Origin: an uncultured Planctomycetaceae bacterium
GTDB lineage: Bacteria > Planctomycetota > Phycisphaerae > SM23-33
NCBI GenBank assembly: GCA_964472875.1
Contig: CAYYMD010000005.1
Coordinates: 7,670-71,669 of the forward strand
Length of the DNA: 64,000 bases
Direction: 5' to 3'
Part shown: one piece after another, positions 7,295 through 40,174 of the stretch
How the letters are laid out: each line of letters starts with the position of its first letter
Position numbering within the stretch: position 1 is the stretch's first letter
Made by a program: the position numbers and the translations under genes
Notes under the pieces: model-generated
What the model was told of the DNA's origin: nothing
Databases searched by the model: none
The model's input: only the letters and a program-made list of their open reading frames with translations

Positions 7295-7880
7295 TTTTTT
7301 TGGAAATGTCGCCCGAAATTTCTTCCTCTTCCCCTGTGCTGTCTTTGTACAGTCGCCGCATCCGTCCGCTTTTACGCAGTCGCCGAAGCGCCCGCTGGGC
7401 GCGTTTTTTAGCCGCCTCGGTGGAAATCCCCATCGCTGCGGCTACGTCGACGAAAGGCATCTCATGTACAATCCGCAAAGTCAATACCATCCTGTCGTCT
7501 TTACTCAGTCCGGCCAGAATGTCCGATGCGTCAATATCTTTCCATGGTGAGGAGGTGTATGAAATGCATGTGCTCCCGAATGCCTGCTGATTCATTACAT
7601 AATTTGTCCTGCATTTCTTGTGGTGCAACCGCCGTCGAATCATATCTGTGCAAACGTTGCGGAGTATCGTATAGAACCAACTCGAGAACGGCCGGGACGT
7701 GCGGAATTTCTTACGGCTGCGAATCACACGCAGGAACGCCTCCTGGACGGCGTCTTCGGCCGCGTGCCCATCGCCGGCGTGGTCCATAATTCCATTTGCC
7801 ACTGCAAGCGCAGGCGAAGTGTAACGCCGCATGAGTTCATCGAACGCATCTGCGTCGAGGCAGGCCTTGAACCGAGCCAT
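7272..7880 (-). CDS. ECF (sigma-70 family) RNA polymerase sigma factor
   Basis: Region 2 (DAVQEAFLRVIRSRKKFRTSRPFSSWFYTILRNVCTDMIRRRL) and region 4 HTH (DDRMVLTLRIVHEMPFVDVAAAMGISTEAAKKRAQRALRRL) are both recognisable. The start is placed at the internal Met (MARFKAC...) at 7880. The ORF-track start at 8087 would add an implausible 69-aa AT-rich leader. Confidence 0.7.
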   Translation of the reverse strand: MARFKACLDADAFDELMRRYTSPALAVANGIMDHAGDGHAAEDAVQEAFLRVIRSRKKFRTSRPFSSWFYTILRNVCTDMIRRRLHHKKCRTNYVMNQQAFGSTCISYTSSPWKDIDASDILAGLSKDDRMVLTLRIVHEMPFVDVAAAMGISTEAAKKRAQRALRRLRKSGRMRRLYKDSTGEEEEISGDISKKIVPPRTV

Positions 7881-29350: not shown

Positions 29351-31063
29351 ATGAGTTATCTCGTACTGGCAAGAAAATATCGCAGCGCCACGTTCGAGGA
29401 GGTTATCGGCCAGGAACCCATCGCGCGGACGCTGAGCAACGCCATCAAAGAAGACAGGGTGGCGCACGCATACCTGTTCGCCGGCGCCCGCGGCGTGGGC
29501 AAGACCACCACCGCGCGAATACTGGCCAAGTGCCTCAACTGCATGTCGGTCGAGGAGCCCACCACCGAACCGTGCAACAAGTGCGAGGCGTGCGAGGCGA
29601 TATCCCGCGGCGATGACATAGACGTGGTGGAGATAGACGGCGCCTCCAACCGCGGCATAGACGAAATCCGCGAACTCCGCGCAAACGCCATCTACCGCCC
29701 CGCCCGCAGCCGGTACAAGATTTATTACATCGACGAAGTCCACATGCTCACCCGCGAGGCGTTCAACGCGCTGCTGAAGACCCTTGAGGAGCCGCCAGAG
29801 CACGTGAAGTTCATCTTCGCCACCACCGAACCTGAGAAGGTCCTGCCCACAATAACCTCCCGCTGCCAGCGGTTCGACTTCGCCGACATCCCGACCCGCC
29901 TGATAGCCGACCACCTCAAGGCAATCTGCGAGAAAGAGAAGATAAAGGCCGACGACGAGGCCCTGTTCCGCATCGCACGCGCCGCGGCCGGGTCCATGCG
30001 AGACGGGCTGAGTCTGTTGGACCAGATAATCGCCTCCGATGCGGAAATAACGCCCGAGGCCGTCGTCTCCATCCTCGGCACGCCGCCGGACCAGAAGGTG
30101 CTGTCCATCGTCGAGGCGATCGCCGCCGGCGACTCAGCGGCTGCGCTGGGCGAACTGAACAAGGTGCTAAGCGGCAGCGTAACGCTGTCATCGGTTGCTA
30201 AGGCCCTGGGCGATGCGTTCCGCAATATGATGCTGGCGGCCACATGCGGTGGCGACAGCGACCTTATTGAACTGCCCGATACGCAAAAACAGGCCACGGC
30301 GGAACTCGCCGGGCGATTCTCGCTGCCGGTGCTGGTGCAGGCGGTCTCGGTGGTACAGAACGCCGCATGGCGGATGCGCAGTTCGGCGCTGGCGAGGGCG
30401 CTGCTGGAGGCGGCGGTGGTGCGACTGGCCGAGGCCGACAAGTTCGTCGACCCGGAAAGTCTCATCGAGCGGCTACAGGAATTATCCGGCGGCCAAAAAA
30501 AAAATTCCCCACTAAAAGGTAAACCCTCTCCCGCAGCCACTGCCGGCTCACGCAGCGCCAAAAAAGAATCCTCTACCGGCCGTTACCTCGCAAACGAGCA
30601 ACCCAAACCCCCGCCACAGCTTCAGTGGGAACAGACCTGGCTTAGCGCTAACTGGGAAACTCTTATCGAAGCGCTGGCGGCCGTGGGCGAAAAGCAGGTG
30701 GCCGGGGCGATACGCCCTGCCCGTCTGGTGGAACTGGATGGCGAGACGGCCACGCTCGGCTTCGACAAGGACCATGAAATTCTACGGCGGCGATGCGACG
30801 GTGCGCTTAAGGCGCCTATCTGCAAAGCCCTTTCGCGACTGGCGGGCCGGCGTATAGAATGTAAATTCGTCTCCACGGCCACAAACGGCTCCGGCGAAGG
30901 CAAACGGGTGTTCGGTGGGCTGAGCACGGCAGAAAAAAACGGCATAGTAAAAGATCCTCACGTGCAGAAGGTCCTGGCGATGTTCGAAGCCGACGTCGTG
31001 GACATAACGAAGACCCAACCCTCGGCACCCGACACCGCCGGGGACAACACGCAGGACGACTAA
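29351..31063 (+). CDS. dnaX: DNA polymerase III subunit gamma/tau
   Basis: AAA+ clamp-loader N-terminus (LARKYRSATFEEVIGQE ... AYLFAGARGVGKTTTARILAKCLNC), a zinc module (CNKCEACEAI) and the SRC motif (TSRCQRF). Confidence 0.85.
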   Translation: MSYLVLARKYRSATFEEVIGQEPIARTLSNAIKEDRVAHAYLFAGARGVGKTTTARILAKCLNCMSVEEPTTEPCNKCEACEAISRGDDIDVVEIDGASNRGIDEIRELRANAIYRPARSRYKIYYIDEVHMLTREAFNALLKTLEEPPEHVKFIFATTEPEKVLPTITSRCQRFDFADIPTRLIADHLKAICEKEKIKADDEALFRIARAAAGSMRDGLSLLDQIIASDAEITPEAVVSILGTPPDQKVLSIVEAIAAGDSAAALGELNKVLSGSVTLSSVAKALGDAFRNMMLAATCGGDSDLIELPDTQKQATAELAGRFSLPVLVQAVSVVQNAAWRMRSSALARALLEAAVVRLAEADKFVDPESLIERLQELSGGQKKNSPLKGKPSPAATAGSRSAKKESSTGRYLANEQPKPPPQLQWEQTWLSANWETLIEALAAVGEKQVAGAIRPARLVELDGETATLGFDKDHEILRRRCDGALKAPICKALSRLAGRRIECKFVSTATNGSGEGKRVFGGLSTAEKNGIVKDPHVQKVLAMFEADVVDITKTQPSAPDTAGDNTQDD

Positions 31064-31142
31064 AATTAATATTGAGAGATGAGGTTCGTATTCGCGAAAT
31101 CCCATCGGGATAAGTTCGCGGCTGAAATAATCAGGAGTAAAA

Positions 31143-31508
31143 ATGTTCGGTGACATAGGCAAGATGATGAAAATGGTGGGGCAGATGAAAAAGCGACTGC
31201 CCGAGATGCGCGAAAAGATGGCCAACAGCGAGTTCACGGCCGAGATAACCGCACCGGAGTCTCAGCGAGGCACCACCGGCACGGTCAGGGCGACAGTCAG
31301 CGGCAGGGGCACACTGCTGGATTTGCGGATAGAGCCGGAAGTTCTCGACCGTGACGACACGCCGGCCCAGATGGCTGAAATGCTCGAGGACATCACTGCC
31401 GCGGCCGTAAAGGCCGCTCAGGAAAAGGCCGCCGACGCCATAAAAGAAGCCATGAACGAACTCACCGGCGGCGCCGAACTACCCCCCGGCCTTTCTGACA
31501 TAATTTGA
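31143..31508 (+). CDS. ybaB: Nucleoid-associated protein YbaB/EbfC
   Basis: 121 aa with the N-terminal MMKMVGQMKKRL motif. It lies in the conserved dnaX-ybaB-recR order. Confidence 0.8.
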   Translation: MFGDIGKMMKMVGQMKKRLPEMREKMANSEFTAEITAPESQRGTTGTVRATVSGRGTLLDLRIEPEVLDRDDTPAQMAEMLEDITAAAVKAAQEKAADAIKEAMNELTGGAELPPGLSDII

Positions 31509-31524
31509 TGATTACTATAAAGTC

Positions 31525-32124
31525 ATGGCAGATTATCCCAGCACAATCCAGCGTTTGATAGACCAGTTCGGGCGGCTGCCGGGCATCGGCGCCCGCACGG
31601 CCGAGCGGCTGGCGTTTTTTCTGCTGCGGTCGGAAAGACAGGAGGCGTTCGCCCTGGCCGAGGCCATCCGCGACATCAAGACCAAGGTCCGCCCGTGCAC
31701 GGTTTGCTTCAACATCGCCGAGGATGACCTGTGCAACATCTGCGCCGACCAGCAGCGGGACAAGTCCACCATCTGCGTGGTCGAGCAGCCCAAGGACCTG
31801 CTGGCACTGGAATCGACCGGCGCATACAACGGCGTGTATCACGTGCTGATGGGACACATAGCCCCGCTGGAGGGCGTCGGTCCGGAGGACCTGACCATCG
31901 ATGCGCTGGTGAAGCGCGTAAAGGCAGGCGGCGTGAAGGAGATTCTCCTGGCCACCAACCCCACAGTCTCAGGCGACAGCACGGCACTGCACATATCCGA
32001 GCGACTGGCAGACACGGCCGTAAACGTCACTCGCCTGGCGCGGGGACTGCCCACCGGCGGGCAGATAGAATACTCCAACAAATCCATCCTCGCCGACGCC
32101 ATAAGCAACCGGCGCAAAATCTGA
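31525..32124 (+). CDS. recR: Recombination protein RecR
   Basis: Helix-hairpin-helix (GIGARTAERLAFFLL), C4 zinc finger (CTVCFNIAEDDLCNIC) and a Toprim domain. Confidence 0.9.
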   Translation: MADYPSTIQRLIDQFGRLPGIGARTAERLAFFLLRSERQEAFALAEAIRDIKTKVRPCTVCFNIAEDDLCNICADQQRDKSTICVVEQPKDLLALESTGAYNGVYHVLMGHIAPLEGVGPEDLTIDALVKRVKAGGVKEILLATNPTVSGDSTALHISERLADTAVNVTRLARGLPTGGQIEYSNKSILADAISNRRKI

Positions 32125-33822: not shown

Positions 33823-36108
33823 ATGCGATTCTATTTTGAACTAAGCGATGATGTCGGTTCCACTGCCTTCGCCGCTTTATCGAACAGATGCCGTGCGCTG
33901 GGCTGGATTTGCCTTCTGGCCGCGATGCTTACGTTGTCTGTCGCCTCCGCCGCCGACGTCGTCGCGCCGCCTGATACGGAGGATGTATCCGAACAAATTG
34001 TCTCTAAGTACAAGTCGGTGTACACTACACGGCCGATAGGCCCAAATTATCAATCCTTGGATGCTGTTCTGATAGGCAACGGTGACGTGGCCGTCGCCAT
34101 CAGCACTACGCCGTCGCAGTTAAAAGGGCACCGGAGCCATCGCAAACCCGAGCAGATTCGTTTCTGGTTTCACAAAAACGACTTCTGGAAACTCGGCGGG
34201 CCAACCAAGAGTAAACTCCTGGGCTATATCGATTTCTGGTTCGAACTTCGCCACGGCAAGAATCGCCCTAAGCGAAAATACCGTTTCGAGAACGACCTAT
34301 ACACCGCAACCGCTCATGGCCGCGTGTCTCAGGGCGAGGACCAGATCCTCGACATAAAGGCCTGGGTCAGCGCGATTGACGATATGGTTTTTATACAGTT
34401 CTCCGCTCCCGCCAAGCAAAAGGTCTACTGGGTTAACACAGACCCTCAGATAATGCGGGCCGGCAGCGAGTGGGAAGCGAAAGGGGTAGACGGATACGAA
34501 AAGATTTTCTGGCGGCGGGAGTTTCCCGACGGCGATCCGCCTACGGGCATGAGCATGTGCTTCAAGAGGTATGGTGACAAAATGCGGCACGGCGAACTGG
34601 GCAAGAAGCCGCAGACGCTGGTTTTCGCCATTGACAGTCTTCTGGAGAACAAAAACTACGGCGAAAGCGTCCAAAAAAAGATAAAAGATTTTAAAATCGA
34701 GGACATGGAGAAGCAATACGCGGCCCATAGGCAATGGTGGTCCGATTTCTGGGCTAAAAGTTTCATCGACATTCCCGACGAAACAATCGAAAAGCAATAC
34801 TACCTGGCGAATTACGTGCTGGCCGGTTGCTGCCGCAACAAGGATTTCCCGCCCGGACTGCGGACTACATGGACGTGCAACGACAATCCGCGATGGAGTA
34901 ACGACTATCACCTCAACTATAACTTCCAGGCCGGATTTTACAGTCTGTATGGAACCAATCACCCCGAAATGGGCGAAGTGCAGGACCAGCCGCTGCTGGA
35001 TTACATGCCGGTCGGACGCAAACTCGCAAAAGAGCGACTGGGCGTGCCAGGCATTTTATATCCGGTCGGTATAGGTCCGAAGGGCACAACAACATGGGGA
35101 AATGACTACGGCCAGAAAAGCAACGCCTCATATGGCGCAGTCAACATGATTTTCCGCTGGAAGACCACATATGACCTTGATTATGCAAAAAAAGTTTACC
35201 CATACTTCAGGGAACTGACAACTTTCTGGGAGGCATACCTTAAGTACGAAAAAGAGAATGACCGCTACGTTATCGAAAAGGACTCGGTCCACGAGCAAAG
35301 CGGCAAGGACTTCAACTCCATTGTCTCCCTCGCGCTGTGCCGCGCGGTGTTCGAAACGGCCATGGACATGAGCAAGGCCCTCGGCGTGGACGTTGAAAAG
35401 CAAGAGAAGTGGAACCGCATCCTTGAACATCTCAGCGACTATGCCACCCAGCAGCGGGAGGGTAAAACGGTCTTCCGCTACACGGAAAAGGGTACGGAAT
35501 GGTGGAAAGGCAACACGCTCGGCATTCAGCACATATACCCTGCGCTGGGCATCGGCCTGGAAAGTGACCCGCGCCTTATAAAGATAGCCCGAAATACTAT
35601 TGACGTTATGCAGCGATGGTTCGACCACAACGGCGACAATAGTTTCTTCCCCGCGGCCGCTTACGTCGGATACAAACCCGAGGTCATCTACAAAAAACTC
35701 CACGAGTATGTCGCCAGCCACTATCGGCCTAACGGCCTGCGCGCCCGCCAGGGACATGGAACGGAGAAATTATCCACCATTCCAAACACGGTGAACATGA
35801 TGCTGTGCTCCGTACACCGCGGTGTCATGCGGCTTTATCCGGCCTGGCCGAAAGACGTCGACGCACGATTCGGCAACCTCCGTCAGTTTGGAGCGTTCCT
35901 TGTCTCCAGCGAACTAAAAGATGGAACGGTGCGGTATGTCACTATCCTGAGCGAAAAGGGCCGTGACCTGACACTCGTGAACCCCTGGCCCGGCCGGGAC
36001 GTGGCGCTGCGTCGGAACGGGCAGGAGGCAAAAAAGGTCCTCAGCGGGAAAAACTTTACTATTGAGACAAGCCCGGGCGAGACACTCGCACTGACTCCGG
36101 CTGAATAA
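33823..36108 (+). CDS. Secreted divergent GH95-like six-hairpin glycoside hydrolase (function uncertain)
   Basis: 761 aa with a signal-anchor-like N-terminus. The segment WSNDYHLNYNFQAGFYSLYGTNHPEMGE resembles the GH95 catalytic N-x-N-x-Q/E-x-N-Y-W region. The downstream layout (YG, aromatic-rich helices, VYPYFRELTTFWEAYL) parallels GH95. Similarity is remote and judged by eye. Confidence 0.4.
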   Translation: MRFYFELSDDVGSTAFAALSNRCRALGWICLLAAMLTLSVASAADVVAPPDTEDVSEQIVSKYKSVYTTRPIGPNYQSLDAVLIGNGDVAVAISTTPSQLKGHRSHRKPEQIRFWFHKNDFWKLGGPTKSKLLGYIDFWFELRHGKNRPKRKYRFENDLYTATAHGRVSQGEDQILDIKAWVSAIDDMVFIQFSAPAKQKVYWVNTDPQIMRAGSEWEAKGVDGYEKIFWRREFPDGDPPTGMSMCFKRYGDKMRHGELGKKPQTLVFAIDSLLENKNYGESVQKKIKDFKIEDMEKQYAAHRQWWSDFWAKSFIDIPDETIEKQYYLANYVLAGCCRNKDFPPGLRTTWTCNDNPRWSNDYHLNYNFQAGFYSLYGTNHPEMGEVQDQPLLDYMPVGRKLAKERLGVPGILYPVGIGPKGTTTWGNDYGQKSNASYGAVNMIFRWKTTYDLDYAKKVYPYFRELTTFWEAYLKYEKENDRYVIEKDSVHEQSGKDFNSIVSLALCRAVFETAMDMSKALGVDVEKQEKWNRILEHLSDYATQQREGKTVFRYTEKGTEWWKGNTLGIQHIYPALGIGLESDPRLIKIARNTIDVMQRWFDHNGDNSFFPAAAYVGYKPEVIYKKLHEYVASHYRPNGLRARQGHGTEKLSTIPNTVNMMLCSVHRGVMRLYPAWPKDVDARFGNLRQFGAFLVSSELKDGTVRYVTILSEKGRDLTLVNPWPGRDVALRRNGQEAKKVLSGKNFTIETSPGETLALTPAE

Positions 36109-36293: not shown

Positions 36294-37379
36294 TCAATCG
36301 ATGGGAAGTTGAGGTGGCCGCGACTTTTTATCGCTTCCAGACTCGGGCTTTGGCTTAGGTGGCTTTACGCCTTTACACTTATATTGCCACACTATGATAG
36401 TCCACTTGTCACGGGTGGTGGGCACCCACCCTGCTGCTAAAGAGTATTCGTCGCTAACGCGACGCGCACGGACATAGAGTTCAAAACTATCGGGCCAGAC
36501 GACAAATCGCACGTACCGCTTATCTTTGTCCGTATGCCGCAACACTCGTTGAAAAAGACTGTGCGGCATTTGGATTCGATTTATTGTTTCGCCGCCTCCG
36601 CGCTTACGGTTCAATACCACTTGTACCCCTCGCCAGTGTGGCTCGACGGTGTATCTAAAATCGTTCGTTCCCAGATTGTGGTTCTGGAAATACTCCGCAA
36701 GCACCTTGCAATCGACAGGGGCTGTTTTGTCCGACCGATTGGGAAAGCAATGTCGAACAATCGCACTGACGACCTTTTTGACGTTATCGTAACTGACATG
36801 ATACAGACGACCCTCCCGGCAAAGAAATAATACGGGCCTGGCGCCTTTCGGCGCCGGGCGGGGATTTGGAAGAGTCACGATTTTTGGTGGCGGCGCTTTG
36901 ACCTTCGCCACCTCAGCCAGCTGTGTCTGGATACGGTCCTCTTGCTGATCGAGCTTACCGATTTGCTCGGTGAGTTTATTGATTTCGTTCTTGCGTTGTG
37001 TCAGGAGTTTTTCAACCTTTTGTTTGAACTTGTCCGGCTCAGTGGGTTCAGATAGCTGCTTTTGCAGACCGGCGATGCGCTGCTGTGTCTCGTCGAGTCG
37101 GCGACGCAATTCAGGCAGATGCTTCTTTTTCTGGTTCCATTGACGAAGCAGTTGATTGATTTCTTGTTCCTGTTGATTGGCTTTCTTCTCGGCCAGCGCC
37201 AGCTGCCGTCTGCTGACTACCGGAATGTCTTGCTCCGCGCGTAAAACCCTCTTGACCGCATCAGCGACATTAAGTTGCGTAACCACCAGCAGAATAACCA
37301 GAATGCCGACAACGTTAGTCATCGTGTCAAGCAGTGAATCGAGACTCCCAATTTCGGTTTTTCGCCTGCGTCGCGACAT
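36294..37379 (-). CDS. ExbD/TolR-like membrane protein with long coiled-coil spacer (paralog B; retains TM Asp)
   Basis: 361 aa. The N-terminus MSRRRRKTEIGSLDSLLDTMTNVVGILVILLVV matches the ExbD/TolR basic patch plus TM helix with the conserved Asp. About 140 aa of heptad coiled coil follow. The C-terminal ~150 aa have an ExbD-like periplasmic-domain pattern and end in the paralog-shared motif W-Y-K-C-G-K-P. Confidence 0.5.
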   Translation of the reverse strand: MSRRRRKTEIGSLDSLLDTMTNVVGILVILLVVTQLNVADAVKRVLRAEQDIPVVSRRQLALAEKKANQQEQEINQLLRQWNQKKKHLPELRRRLDETQQRIAGLQKQLSEPTEPDKFKQKVEKLLTQRKNEINKLTEQIGKLDQQEDRIQTQLAEVAKVKAPPPKIVTLPNPRPAPKGARPVLFLCREGRLYHVSYDNVKKVVSAIVRHCFPNRSDKTAPVDCKVLAEYFQNHNLGTNDFRYTVEPHWRGVQVVLNRKRGGGETINRIQMPHSLFQRVLRHTDKDKRYVRFVVWPDSFELYVRARRVSDEYSLAAGWVPTTRDKWTIIVWQYKCKGVKPPKPKPESGSDKKSRPPQLPID

Positions 37380-37382
37380 GAT

Positions 37383-38189
37383 TTATTTTCCTTCAAAATG
37401 AGACAGATCAATCTTCCCCTCCCCCAGAACGGGAAGTTTACCGACTTGGCATTTATATTTCCATGCCTGATTGCGCATCGGTCTAATCAATCCTATAGAA
37501 TTGGGGCGAACCAGCAGGACCGCAACGCCTTTGCGCCTCTTCGCCGTACGGGAGAACACTTTAGCCAGTTCGGAAGAGTTTCCTATATCTTTCTGGTGAA
37601 TACGTACCGGCGGATCGCTGCTGTGGATTATAACATGGGGGTTGTCGAGTTCTATAAAAGCCGGCTGCATATTAACCCCGGAGCCGCTGGCGCGTATGCT
37701 GACACGCGGTTTCCTCAAAGATTGCTTTTCCTCCAGTTGCTGTTTGAGTTGCTTAATTTTCTCCTGCTGTTTGTGATATTGCTGCTGAAATGTTTGGATT
37801 CTCAGTTTCAGTCTTTCGGCTTCTTCCAGGCGCTTGGCTACTTCGCCGCTTTGCCTTTTAATTCTTTTCAACCGAACCTGTAACTGCTCAAGTTGTTGGC
37901 GATTCTTATTTAACTGATCGTTCAGTTTTTGGGCTTCATCGATTCGTTTTTGCAGTTGAGCAATCTGGTCGCTACGCTCCTTGTCGGAGCGGACCAACTG
38001 CGCATATCGTTGGGCCCGCTTTTTTGCCTCGACCAGTTCTCGCTCCGCTTTGGCTACCGCCTGCGGGTCCAATTGCCCCAGGGCCATAGCCGTGATCATC
38101 AATGTCAGAGTGCCTATTACACACGCCAGGATGCTCAGGAACGGAAACAGGGAAACGATATTCGCATTTTTACGCTTTCGACGGGCCAT
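37383..38189 (-). CDS. ExbD/TolR-like membrane protein with long coiled-coil spacer (paralog A; TM Asp replaced by Pro)
   Basis: 268 aa. The N-terminus is MARRKRKNANIVSLFPFLSILACVIGTLTLMI, a basic patch plus TM aligned to paralog B, with Pro where the Asp sits. About 140 aa of coiled coil follow. The C-terminal domain shares VIIHSSD / AWKYKCQVGKLP with paralog B. Confidence 0.45.
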   Translation of the reverse strand: MARRKRKNANIVSLFPFLSILACVIGTLTLMITAMALGQLDPQAVAKAERELVEAKKRAQRYAQLVRSDKERSDQIAQLQKRIDEAQKLNDQLNKNRQQLEQLQVRLKRIKRQSGEVAKRLEEAERLKLRIQTFQQQYHKQQEKIKQLKQQLEEKQSLRKPRVSIRASGSGVNMQPAFIELDNPHVIIHSSDPPVRIHQKDIGNSSELAKVFSRTAKRRKGVAVLLVRPNSIGLIRPMRNQAWKYKCQVGKLPVLGEGKIDLSHFEGK

Positions 38190-39561
38190 TACCTTTGTTT
38201 TTCTTCCTCAGAGCGCCCCAGTTGAATAAACCGCGCTTCCGCACCTCCACGACGACATGTTCATGCCCGAGTTTTTCCAGCACCCGGTTCAGCGATGCCA
38301 TCCCCTCTTCCAGGCCGGTGAAGCAGCGATGAATTCTATCCGTCGTTTCAGTCAGCGACTGACTTAATTCGGTGTGCGCAGACTTCGAGCGTTCGCTGAT
38401 GGTCTCCATATTCGCGGCTGCTTCCTGCCCGACAACCTCGGCTTGTTCATGTATCGTTTGGGCGATATGCTCCATCTGGGCGATTTGAGACTCATGAAGT
38501 TCGGTAACTTTTTCCTGCACTTGTCTGATTTCGGAGTAAACTTCCGGTGCAAGTTGCCCCGTGGCCGAGGCACCGCCACCACCGTCGTCCAGCCGTTTAA
38601 GCAGGTTTTCGTTGCAGTACTCATCGACCCAATTGAGCAGGTCGTCCTCGCTCTTTTGCAGTGCGTGGGAGGGTATGGCGATTATCAGACTCATCACCAG
38701 CGCCACAAGCGTGGTGTCGAATGCGATGCCGAGCCCGGTTGTTACAGTGCCGAGTTTCGCCTTGAGGTCTTCGATGTCGGCGCCGGAATCCAGTTCACCG
38801 CTGAATCCGCCAACCGCGGCGCTGATGCCGATTACCGTACCAATAAACCCCAGAATAGGAATCGCCCACGTGAAAACGCGCACAAGCGTGTAACTGGACT
38901 CAACGGCATTGGCGTCAATATCAGACTGACTGTTCATCAGCGAGGCAACCTCACCGTTATTTCGACGAGCCGTGAAATGCTCCAGGCCACGAAGTACACG
39001 GTTTATCATGAAACTTCCGGAAGCCCGCACGGGCAACTTTCTGACGTGAGAGATGAACTTCTCGGCGTTGTGAGCAGTTATGGTGTCGGCTATTATATTG
39101 GGCAGGACATCGAACAGCATTACGTCGCGATGTCGTCGATGACGCAGCCATTTAAGCACAAGTATCGCTACCGACCATCCGAATAGAAGAACCAGCACGA
39201 ACGGAACCCACCCGCGCCGCCAGAACAAGTCGTGGAAATAAGTTCCTTTAAAGGGCAGGATAACCACCATGAACGCTGCGGCGATTATCAAGCCAACTAT
39301 AAAACTTCGAAGCGGGCTTACATTAACGCCCGTGCCGCCGAGTTCCGCCACGGCTTTACTGGCTACCTTTTTTGAAGTCTTAGCGGATATTTTCTCCGAG
39401 GTTGTTTCCGCGGGCCTGGCCGTGGGAATCGTCGCTTTAGATTGACAAGGAATTATTACCGTATTCTTACAGTATGGACAACGTGCTTTTTTACCCCTTT
39501 TGTCCTCTTGTGCCCGAAGATCTTTGCCACAGTGTTCACATGTGAATTTAAAGTAATTCAT
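38170..39561 (-). CDS. MotA/TolQ/ExbB-family proton-channel protein with N-terminal zinc ribbon and C-terminal coiled-coil tail
   Basis: 463 aa. N-terminal CxxC-x16-CxxC (CEHCGK ... CPYCKN). There are four TM helices in MotA topology: two N-terminal, then a cytoplasmic loop, then TM3/TM4 carrying the PF01618-type signature ILGFIGTVIGISAAVGG ... GLGIAFDTTLVALVMSLIIAIP. The C-terminal ~130 aa are coiled coil. It overlaps paralog A by 20 nt. Confidence 0.6.
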   Translation of the reverse strand: MNYFKFTCEHCGKDLRAQEDKRGKKARCPYCKNTVIIPCQSKATIPTARPAETTSEKISAKTSKKVASKAVAELGGTGVNVSPLRSFIVGLIIAAAFMVVILPFKGTYFHDLFWRRGWVPFVLVLLFGWSVAILVLKWLRHRRHRDVMLFDVLPNIIADTITAHNAEKFISHVRKLPVRASGSFMINRVLRGLEHFTARRNNGEVASLMNSQSDIDANAVESSYTLVRVFTWAIPILGFIGTVIGISAAVGGFSGELDSGADIEDLKAKLGTVTTGLGIAFDTTLVALVMSLIIAIPSHALQKSEDDLLNWVDEYCNENLLKRLDDGGGGASATGQLAPEVYSEIRQVQEKVTELHESQIAQMEHIAQTIHEQAEVVGQEAAANMETISERSKSAHTELSQSLTETTDRIHRCFTGLEEGMASLNRVLEKLGHEHVVVEVRKRGLFNWGALRKKNKGNGPSKA

Positions 39562-40174
39562 TTTATTGACAACTTCTCCAATTTTTATCGGTCAACTTTA
39601 CTCATTGACTCATTGATTATAGCAACAACCACCACCTTTGAAAATGGGTTTCAGTGTAAGAGAGGTTTGCTTTGTAAGGATTTTTGCGGGGCCGTGGTGG
39701 TTGAAGGACACGGATTGAGGCGATCCGGCAAGGTGCGGCAGAATGAAAACACCGTTCTAAAGCGGAATTTGCTCCACACAACAGATCAACGGCTCATCGT
39801 GAGGGCTTTGACGGCCTGATAGCGCAGAGTTCCCCCGCAGGGACACATAAACGCCATAGATTTTCGGCTCCGGCGCCCCCCCTAAGCCACCTTCACCAGA
39901 GACCGAAGGTGCGGCTTTTGCTTCTCCCTGATACGGCCCAAGGCCATCGCCAGCATCACCAGCAGCGACAGACCGATCCGAAGACGCATCTTGGCCAGCC
40001 CACGAATAAAGTGATCCTCGAACCCAAAAGACACATCCGGTCCCCTCTTAAGCTTCATCCCGCACCGGATTTGAGCGGTGCGGGACTTCGGTGGACATGT
40101 TATATTGATTAAAACCTCTAACAATATGCTACTGACTTCGTTCGGCTGCATCGCCGAGGCGCTGCGTCGAACAG

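Follow-up and report, generated by a model that had tools for sequence, protein, structure and literature searches.

The locus examined here raises the question of whether an ion-driven motor of the MotA/ExbB/TolQ type can be built around an axle in which only one of the two chains carries a protonatable residue. The window (the whole stretch of 64,000 nucleotides that was analysed, i.e. positions 7,670 to 71,669 of contig CAYYMD010000005.1, assembly GCA_964472875.1) is derived from an uncultured Planctomycetaceae bacterium and contains, on the minus strand from 39561 to 36294, three head-to-tail open reading frames (ORFs), designated here M, A and B in their order of transcription:

38170..39561, minus strand: gene M, MotA/ExbB/TolQ-family channel protein of 463 amino acids with four predicted transmembrane (TM) helices (PF01618)
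37383..38189, minus strand: gene A, TolR/ExbD-like paralog without a membrane carboxylate, 268 amino acids
36294..37379, minus strand: gene B, TolR/MotB-like paralog with carboxylates, 361 amino acids

The start of A overlaps the end of M by 20 nucleotides, its ATG being located 20 nucleotides before the M stop codon, and the ATG of B is found 3 nucleotides past the stop codon of A. The A protein starts with MARRKRKNANIVSLFPFLSILACVIGTLTLMITAMALGQ and the B protein with MSRRRRKTEIGSLDSLLDTMTNVVGILVILLVV; the ORFs, translations and helix sequences of A and B quoted in a first-pass annotation of this DNA were found to be exact. The three genes are proposed here, with a confidence poised midway between acceptance and rejection, to encode an uncharacterised, phylum-wide planctomycete '5:2' ion-driven motor of the MotA/ExbB/TolQ type, likely with a 5:1:1 stoichiometry and a heteromeric axle that bears carboxylates on one side only.

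The difference between the two partners resides in their N-terminal helices:

38076..38153, minus strand: A transmembrane (pore-type) helix, residues 13-38, with Pro16 at 38142-38144 and Ser19 at 38133-38135 (AGC)
37272..37346, minus strand: B transmembrane helix, residues 12-36, with Asp14 at 37338-37340 and Asp18 at 37326-37328

The A helix (SLFPFLSILACVIG, in the context IVSLFPFLSILACVIGTLTLMITAMALGQ) lacks Asp and Glu throughout residues 13-38, as the first-pass annotation had pointed out, and the same was observed in 120/120 homologs. The B helix (SLDSLLDTMTNVVG, in the context GSLDSLLDTMTNVVGILVILLVV) carries both Asp14 and Asp18. The proposal that B has an Asp at the site essential in ExbD, TolR and MotB was borne out, as Asp18 aligns with TolR Asp23 and the adjacent Met20-Thr21 pair with Met34-Thr35 of MotB, so that Asp18 corresponds to MotB Asp32. 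Asp14 is located four residues before Asp18 on the same helix face, one turn towards the cytoplasm, at a position where the TolR family has Val or Ile.

The same annotation had assigned a Pro of A to the Asp site by pairing SLFP with SLLD, a register that proved to be off by three residues. In the hhalign comparison of the A and B families, Ser19 of A falls opposite Asp18 of B and Pro16 of A opposite Ser15 of B, and a hidden Markov model of the A N-terminus compared with Escherichia coli TolR pairs Pro16 with TolR Pro20 and Ser19 with TolR Asp23. Alignment to 123 TolR-family sequences by hhalign returned the same register for A and B, though with scores that were not significant. This set consists of diverse sequences from a representative search, a direct search for E. 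coli TolR homologs having yielded only sequences that were at least 86% identical; all 123 of its members have Asp23, 122 have Pro20, and Asn17 is likewise essentially invariant. To judge from these alignments, Pro16 of A represents the proline conserved in ExbD and TolR, which precedes the Asp site by three residues, and the counterpart of the canonical Asp is Ser19, Pro-x-x-Asp having become Pro-x-x-Ser.

This register is settled by A orthologs that carry Asp at that very site. A orthologs reading VSLFPFLDIMAC, SLFSFLDIMAS or VSLFPFLDILACVIG have an Asp exactly where the window protein has Ser19; those of the VSLFPFLDILACVIG group differ from the window helix essentially at position 19 only, and those reading SLFPFLDI show the Pro and Asp sites together. 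The ExbD/TolR signature is thus complete in the Asp-type A orthologs and reads Pro16-x-x-Ser19 in the window, and B has the Asp (Asp18) but Ser15 where ExbD and TolR have Pro. A corrected start, which had been named as a possible refutation, cannot bring an acidic residue into the A helix, since the ORF cannot be extended (no start codon lies between its ATG and the in-frame stop before it) and the homologs open with the same residues (M-[AS]-R-R-[KR]). The face of the A helix that bears Ser19 also carries, one turn higher, Cys23 (38123-38125, minus strand), which is 98% conserved; one of the Asp-type groups (group 1) often has Ser at this position.

Relatives of A are encoded in 394 species-level genomes, nearly all of which are labelled Planctomycetota. 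Synteny counts are based on the 80 species loci that were kept. M was observed directly upstream of A in approximately 77 of the 80, the remainder being cut by contig ends, and the order M-A-B in approximately 67 of the 80. A always abuts M, and starts and stops usually overlap or abut. In Gimesia-type genomes (L042, L043, L048, L051, L053 and L057, all Gimesia, and L081), only M and A are contiguous, with B alone at a distant locus among unrelated genes and no MotA-like gene of its own. The complete genome of Planctomycetales bacterium ZRK34 (CP050848.1, loci L002 and L003) encodes two full M-A-B operons, both with a Ser-type A.

Orthologs share 30-40% identity overall, with helices that are almost frozen. 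The mean frequency of the majority residue is 0.92 in the A helix and 0.88 in the B helix, compared with 0.36-0.37 in the coiled coils. Fourteen consecutive residues of A (13-26), covering all helix faces, are each at least 92% conserved. Pro16 and Ser19 were found in 120/120 of the best database A homologs, none of which has Asp, Glu or His in the helix, and the best database B homologs retain Asp14 in 118/118 and Asp18 in 119/119. The C-terminal domain of A is likewise well conserved, and a full-length A ORF is retained in several hundred species genomes.

The asymmetry reported for the window goes well past what chance would give and is conserved, not a one-off, although it is not universal. 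Of the 157 operons sampled, with a bias that stems from the search patterns, 138 have Ser at position 19 of A, 18 have Asp and one has Ala; the Asp19 operons were first reached via divergent B homologs. A metagenome scan that was led by an Asp-type query protein and allowed either Ser or Asp in its patterns yielded 61 loci of the Ser type and 13 of the Asp type. B retains Asp14 and Asp18 in Ser-, Asp- and Ala-type operons alike. Asp14 of B had been considered as a compensation for the Asp lost from A, which is ruled out by its equal presence where A has Asp19. The lone Ala19 ortholog (L036, 8001-8819) reads FLAVLAC at this site, with the codon GCC.

The Asp-type operons fall into three coherent groups in a tree of M built by neighbour joining, and a minimum of four state changes is needed, including that to the single Ala. 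The direction of the Asp/Ser change on this tree depends on the root; comparison with ExbD and TolR suggests that Asp is ancestral at position 19. The Ser19 codon is AGC or AGT (AGY) in 136/138 and the Asp19 codon GAC or GAT, meaning that an exchange between the two requires two nucleotide changes. The near-exclusive use of AGY implies that the site has not gone through a non-Ser state, and such a single codon family is the signature of a selected serine. On these patterns of conservation, Ser19 and the A helix as a whole are under strong purifying selection. Orthologs in which both partners carry Asp, which had been put forward as evidence that the window copy is simply degenerate, do exist in three lineages, but that inference fails on the frozen helix and the AGY codons. 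In the deep Asp-type clade (L090, L091 and L092), a gene for a glycine-zipper, outer-membrane-type protein (PF13441/PF13488) is located immediately upstream of M in 3/3 loci and could be a lineage-specific partner.

The family alignments of A and B match over 254 columns that include the helix, the coiled-coil hairpin and the C-terminal domain (hhalign probability 98.8%, E 1.3e-16), and as this match extends over the full length, A and B are, by profile comparison, true paralogs, in agreement with the first reading of the locus. AlphaFold2 models of A and B (mean predicted local distance difference test (pLDDT) scores of 90 and 85, respectively) share a common plan, with an N-in TM helix followed by a helical hairpin of approximately 100 residues and an α/β domain:

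37722..38066, minus strand: A periplasmic helical hairpin, residues 42-156 (AlphaFold2 helices 42-113 and 115-156, pLDDT ~90)
37407..37706, minus strand: A TolR-like α/β domain, residues 162-261 (Foldseek match to TolR)
36912..37211, minus strand: B periplasmic helical hairpin, residues 57-156 (AlphaFold2 model)
36390..36839, minus strand: B α/β domain, residues 181-330, homologous to the A domain with an insertion (hhalign against A; AlphaFold2 pLDDT >90)
36297..36389, minus strand: B proline-rich C-terminal tail, residues 331-361, ending in Asp361 (alignment of orthologs)

Among 350,542 PDB chains, the top Foldseek match of the A model was the periplasmic domain of E. coli TolR (5by4; E 3.4e-3, probability 1.0), with a TM-score of 0.58 on the target. 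The match is modest but specific; the predicted structure of A was thereby shown to have a TolR-like fold, in line with the ExbD-like identity originally given to it. The hairpin of A is variable in sequence and constrained in length. The B tail ends in P-x-D-x-I-D at the C-terminus, with a terminal Asp361 that is invariant across 48 aligned orthologs; this end has the look of a conserved docking motif at the C-terminus, with some resemblance to an extended linker of the TonB style.

The MotA-like assignment of the upstream gene was confirmed. M of the window matches PF01618 with 32.8 bits (cutoff 22.9), as do 33/33 of its orthologs (best E 2.9e-11), and M is thus shown, at the level of family profiles, to be a member of the MotA/ExbB channel family. 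Three regions were distinguished:

39469..39540, minus strand: M N-terminal zinc ribbon, CxxC...CPYC, residues 8-31 (four cysteines at least 90% conserved; weak zinc-ribbon family matches)
38653..38994, minus strand: M channel core, residues 190-303, with WAIPILGFIGTV (Thr242) and AFDTTLVAL (Asp282, Thr283 and Thr284) (Pfam match region)
38242..38574, minus strand: M cytoplasmic C-terminal helical tail, approximately residues 330-440, variable in sequence (weak ZorA-tail matches, PADLOC and PDB 8qyd)

The motif columns of the channel core are invariant or nearly so among orthologs. Thr242 in GFIGTV and Asp282-Thr283-Thr284 in AFDTTL, located in the last two M helices, are invariant or at least 90% conserved, and by motif similarity these Thr motifs may be equivalent to Thr145 and Thr178 of TolQ. 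The zinc ribbon, together with the helical cytoplasmic tail of approximately 120 residues, suggests a cytoplasmic partner or input.

In the proposed complex, M would form a pentameric channel, and one A helix and one B helix would lie side by side in its pore, giving a 5:1:1 complex as predicted for AglQ/AglS in AglR. Protons would be bound by B alone, through Asp18 and the second invariant Asp14 one helical turn below, and A would supply the pore with polar, non-ionisable residues only (Ser19, Cys23 and Thr29). A pentamer turning past such an axle would meet one protonatable chain rather than two, and the motor would consequently fire at half as many sites as usual, or would work as a biased switch. 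For this operon, we infer a 5:1:1 stoichiometry, a location of A in the pore, rotation and a cellular role. Several observations argue for the placement of A. Its helix is taken to be a genuine ExbD/TolR-type pore helix because A orthologs of three lineages carry P-x-x-D there, and to be enclosed in the pore because it is conserved on all faces. A is regarded as a pore subunit because it holds the gene slot directly after the MotA-like gene, which is the usual place of B-type subunits. Occupation of one pore by A and B is suggested by small-xxx-small motifs that are in register (Ala22...Gly26 in A and Thr21...Gly25 in B), and their co-assembly by the fact that TolR-like domains dimerise. In the cell, the complex probably performs a mechanical task that spans the envelope; the hairpins and the proline-rich tail of B point into the periplasm. 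The more specific proposal, that most planctomycetes run a 'half-site' 5:1:1 ion motor with an obligate heterodimer axle in which only one chain is protonatable (Asp18 and Asp14) and the partner carries a selected Ser, is advanced tentatively, at somewhat below an even chance.

A number of observations weigh against this interpretation. A and B reach no Pfam ExbD (PF02472), MotB or OmpA model, and hhalign of their helices and domains against the 123-sequence TolR alignment was not significant (probability <8%). The fold of the B domain was unmatched, as the long helices and hairpin swamped both fold searches, and the link to TolR runs through A only. Hairpin lengths of A and B correlate weakly (Spearman 0.32, phylogeny uncorrected). 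M columns co-varying with the Ser/Asp state of A revealed lineage effects only and no pore-specific signal. The persistence of both the Asp19 and the Ser19 forms could, moreover, mean that the A helix is outside the proton path altogether. Pfam, NCBIfam and PADLOC returned coiled-coil noise only for A and B, isolated A and B helices and domains gave no PF02472 match even at E values up to 10, and coiled coils dominated the sequence-profile searches of the PDB that used the alignments of A, B and M. Neither PF00691 nor PF13677 (the peptidoglycan-binding OmpA-like domain and the plug of MotB) was matched, and the C-terminal domain of A and B has a different fold.

Four other explanations were weighed against the heteromeric axle. 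A and B could form two alternative homodimers that compete for the pore, M5B2 being the working proton motor and M5A2 a non-conducting form with a parked, structural or regulatory function. Homodimers are the rule among canonical family members (PMC9389320), the two proteins have the same architecture and similarly conserved helices, and the Gimesia-type genomes, with an M-A operon and B elsewhere, would allow separate regulation. The contiguous genes with coupled starts and stops in approximately 67 of the 80 species loci favour equimolar co-assembly instead; in addition, the lineages in which A has Asp19 still retain B, and an Asp-less homodimer would have no known activity, yet the A helix is among the most conserved parts of the system. 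This arrangement is considered unlikely, and an arrangement in which B2 is the axle and A a TolA/TonB-like force transducer, with its helix on the outside of the M pentamer, more improbable again. In favour of a transducer, A lacks the carboxylate, as do TolA and TonB, and has a long helical periplasmic segment resembling domain II of γ-proteobacterial TolA, and three-gene operons of the TolQ-TolR-TolA type exist (PMC12215075, PMC12204202). The peripheral helix of TonB and TolA is, however, conserved mainly at Ser and His (PMC12215075), and the A helix has no His and no Ser-x3-His motif (SHLS; PMC12215075) in 120/120 homologs and is conserved on all its faces. A is, furthermore, homologous to B along its whole length, its C-terminal domain is TolR-like rather than TolA/TonB-like, some of its orthologs display the P-x-x-D signature of a pore helix, and the gene order is M-A-B, not M-B-A.

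The two remaining explanations are both far less probable. That A is a degenerating duplicate, having lost its Asp without functional meaning, has in its favour the existence of orthologs with Asp at the same site, and is hard to sustain given Pro16 and Ser19 in 120/120 homologs, 92% conservation of the helix vs 37% of the coiled coil, AGY at Ser19 in 136/138 operons, a conserved C-terminal domain and full-length ORFs in several hundred species genomes. An equally slight prospect is that the operon is a Zorya-like anti-phage system, composed of a ZorA-like channel with a tail and ZorB-like partners. It derives from weak PADLOC and NCBIfam matches of M to ZorA, mostly in the helical tail, and a weak PDB match to ZorA (8qyd). 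Set against these matches are a tail of approximately 120 residues, far shorter than that of ZorA, a phylum-wide and housekeeping-like distribution in varied neighbourhoods, and searches that gave no match to ZorB, ZorC, ZorD or ZorE and no defence genes conserved beside the operon.

One of the closest known systems is AglR-AglQ-AglS, the gliding motor of Myxococcus xanthus, which likewise combines one MotA/TolQ-like gene with two different TolR-like genes; AglQ and AglS are predicted to occupy the pore of one pentamer together, as a heterodimer (PMC11761067). Both AglQ and AglS retain the membrane Asp (PMC9389320, citing Sun et al. 2011), an arrangement seen here in only 18/157 operons, whereas A of the window has Ser19. 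AglQ and AglS also lack the helical hairpin of approximately 100 residues, and AglRQS works with the Glt gliding proteins, of which no genes are conserved beside the M-A-B operon. Paired TPH-vWA proteins encoded next to tolQ-like genes in Proteobacteria and Verrucomicrobia offer a second precedent for a heteromeric axle, with two heterologous single-pass partners predicted to place their pore helices in one TolQ-like pentamer (PMC12204202), but both of their helices retain Asp and their periplasmic part has a vWA rather than a TolR-like fold.

ExbB-ExbD and TolQ-TolR of E. coli resemble the operon in a PF01618 channel subunit whose pore motifs contain Thr and whose last helix has an acidic residue, and in a partner with a single N-in helix, which bears the Pro-x-x-Asp signature close to its cytoplasmic end and leads into a domain of TolR fold. 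They differ in that ExbB has three TM helices vs four in M, in the absence of a zinc ribbon, cytoplasmic tail and hairpin insertion, in a Pfam ExbD model that does not detect A or B and in an axle that is a homodimer with two Asp (PMC12215075), unlike that proposed for A and B. ZorA-ZorB is similar to the operon in that its MotA-like subunit ends in a helical tail in the cytoplasm; the ZorA tail is much longer, ZorB has a peptidoglycan-binding domain, and the effectors ZorC, ZorD and ZorE are present there and absent here. The GldL-GldM motor of gliding and the type IX secretion system is a 5:2-type motor whose pore charge arrangement departs from the two-Asp rule, GldM carrying an Arg and GldL a Glu. 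It has no detectable sequence relation to M-A-B, and the periplasmic architecture of GldM is different. The review PMC9389320 includes the GldL-GldM system. The proposed M-A-B motor differs from known MotA/ExbB 5:2 motors in its heteromeric axle with carboxylates on one side, in a hairpin inserted into each of the two partners, and in the zinc ribbon and cytoplasmic tail of M.

In current rotation models of MotAB, ExbBD and TolQR, two identical Asp engage the pentamer by turns (PMC12215075, PMC9389320), and at any instant the two are in different environments, between which they are thought to alternate (PMC12215075). If the half-site motor is real, two alternating Asp are no requirement of the 5:2 motor mechanism. 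The sister lineages with Asp at position 19 of A constitute a built-in evolutionary control for the half-site reading, and the Ser/Asp system allows a direct test in nature of the sufficiency of a single protonatable chain and of the contribution of a second. The literature searched contained no description of the M-A-B family, no natural stator-type axle with a carboxylate on one chain only and no experiments on single-Asp heterodimers. The operon would represent an uncharacterised envelope machine in hundreds of planctomycete species, a phylum whose envelope biology is poorly understood.

The flanks of the operon are convergent or unrelated, with a GH95-like gene downstream and a sulfatase gene upstream. 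Ordinary neighbours occupy 29351-32124 and 33823-36108 (both plus strand), comprising dnaX-ybaB-recR upstream on the opposite strand, an MscS-like gene and the GH95-like glycoside hydrolase gene, which is convergent with B. None of the dnaX-ybaB-recR, MscS-like and GH95-like neighbours is kept beside the operon in other genomes, and a search for further conserved neighbour genes around it revealed that only M, A and B recur. A consensus scan identified, as a pattern match only, a candidate promoter approximately 55 nucleotides upstream of the M start codon:

39616..39644, minus strand: promoter-like site TTTTCA-17-TATAAT, preceded by TG

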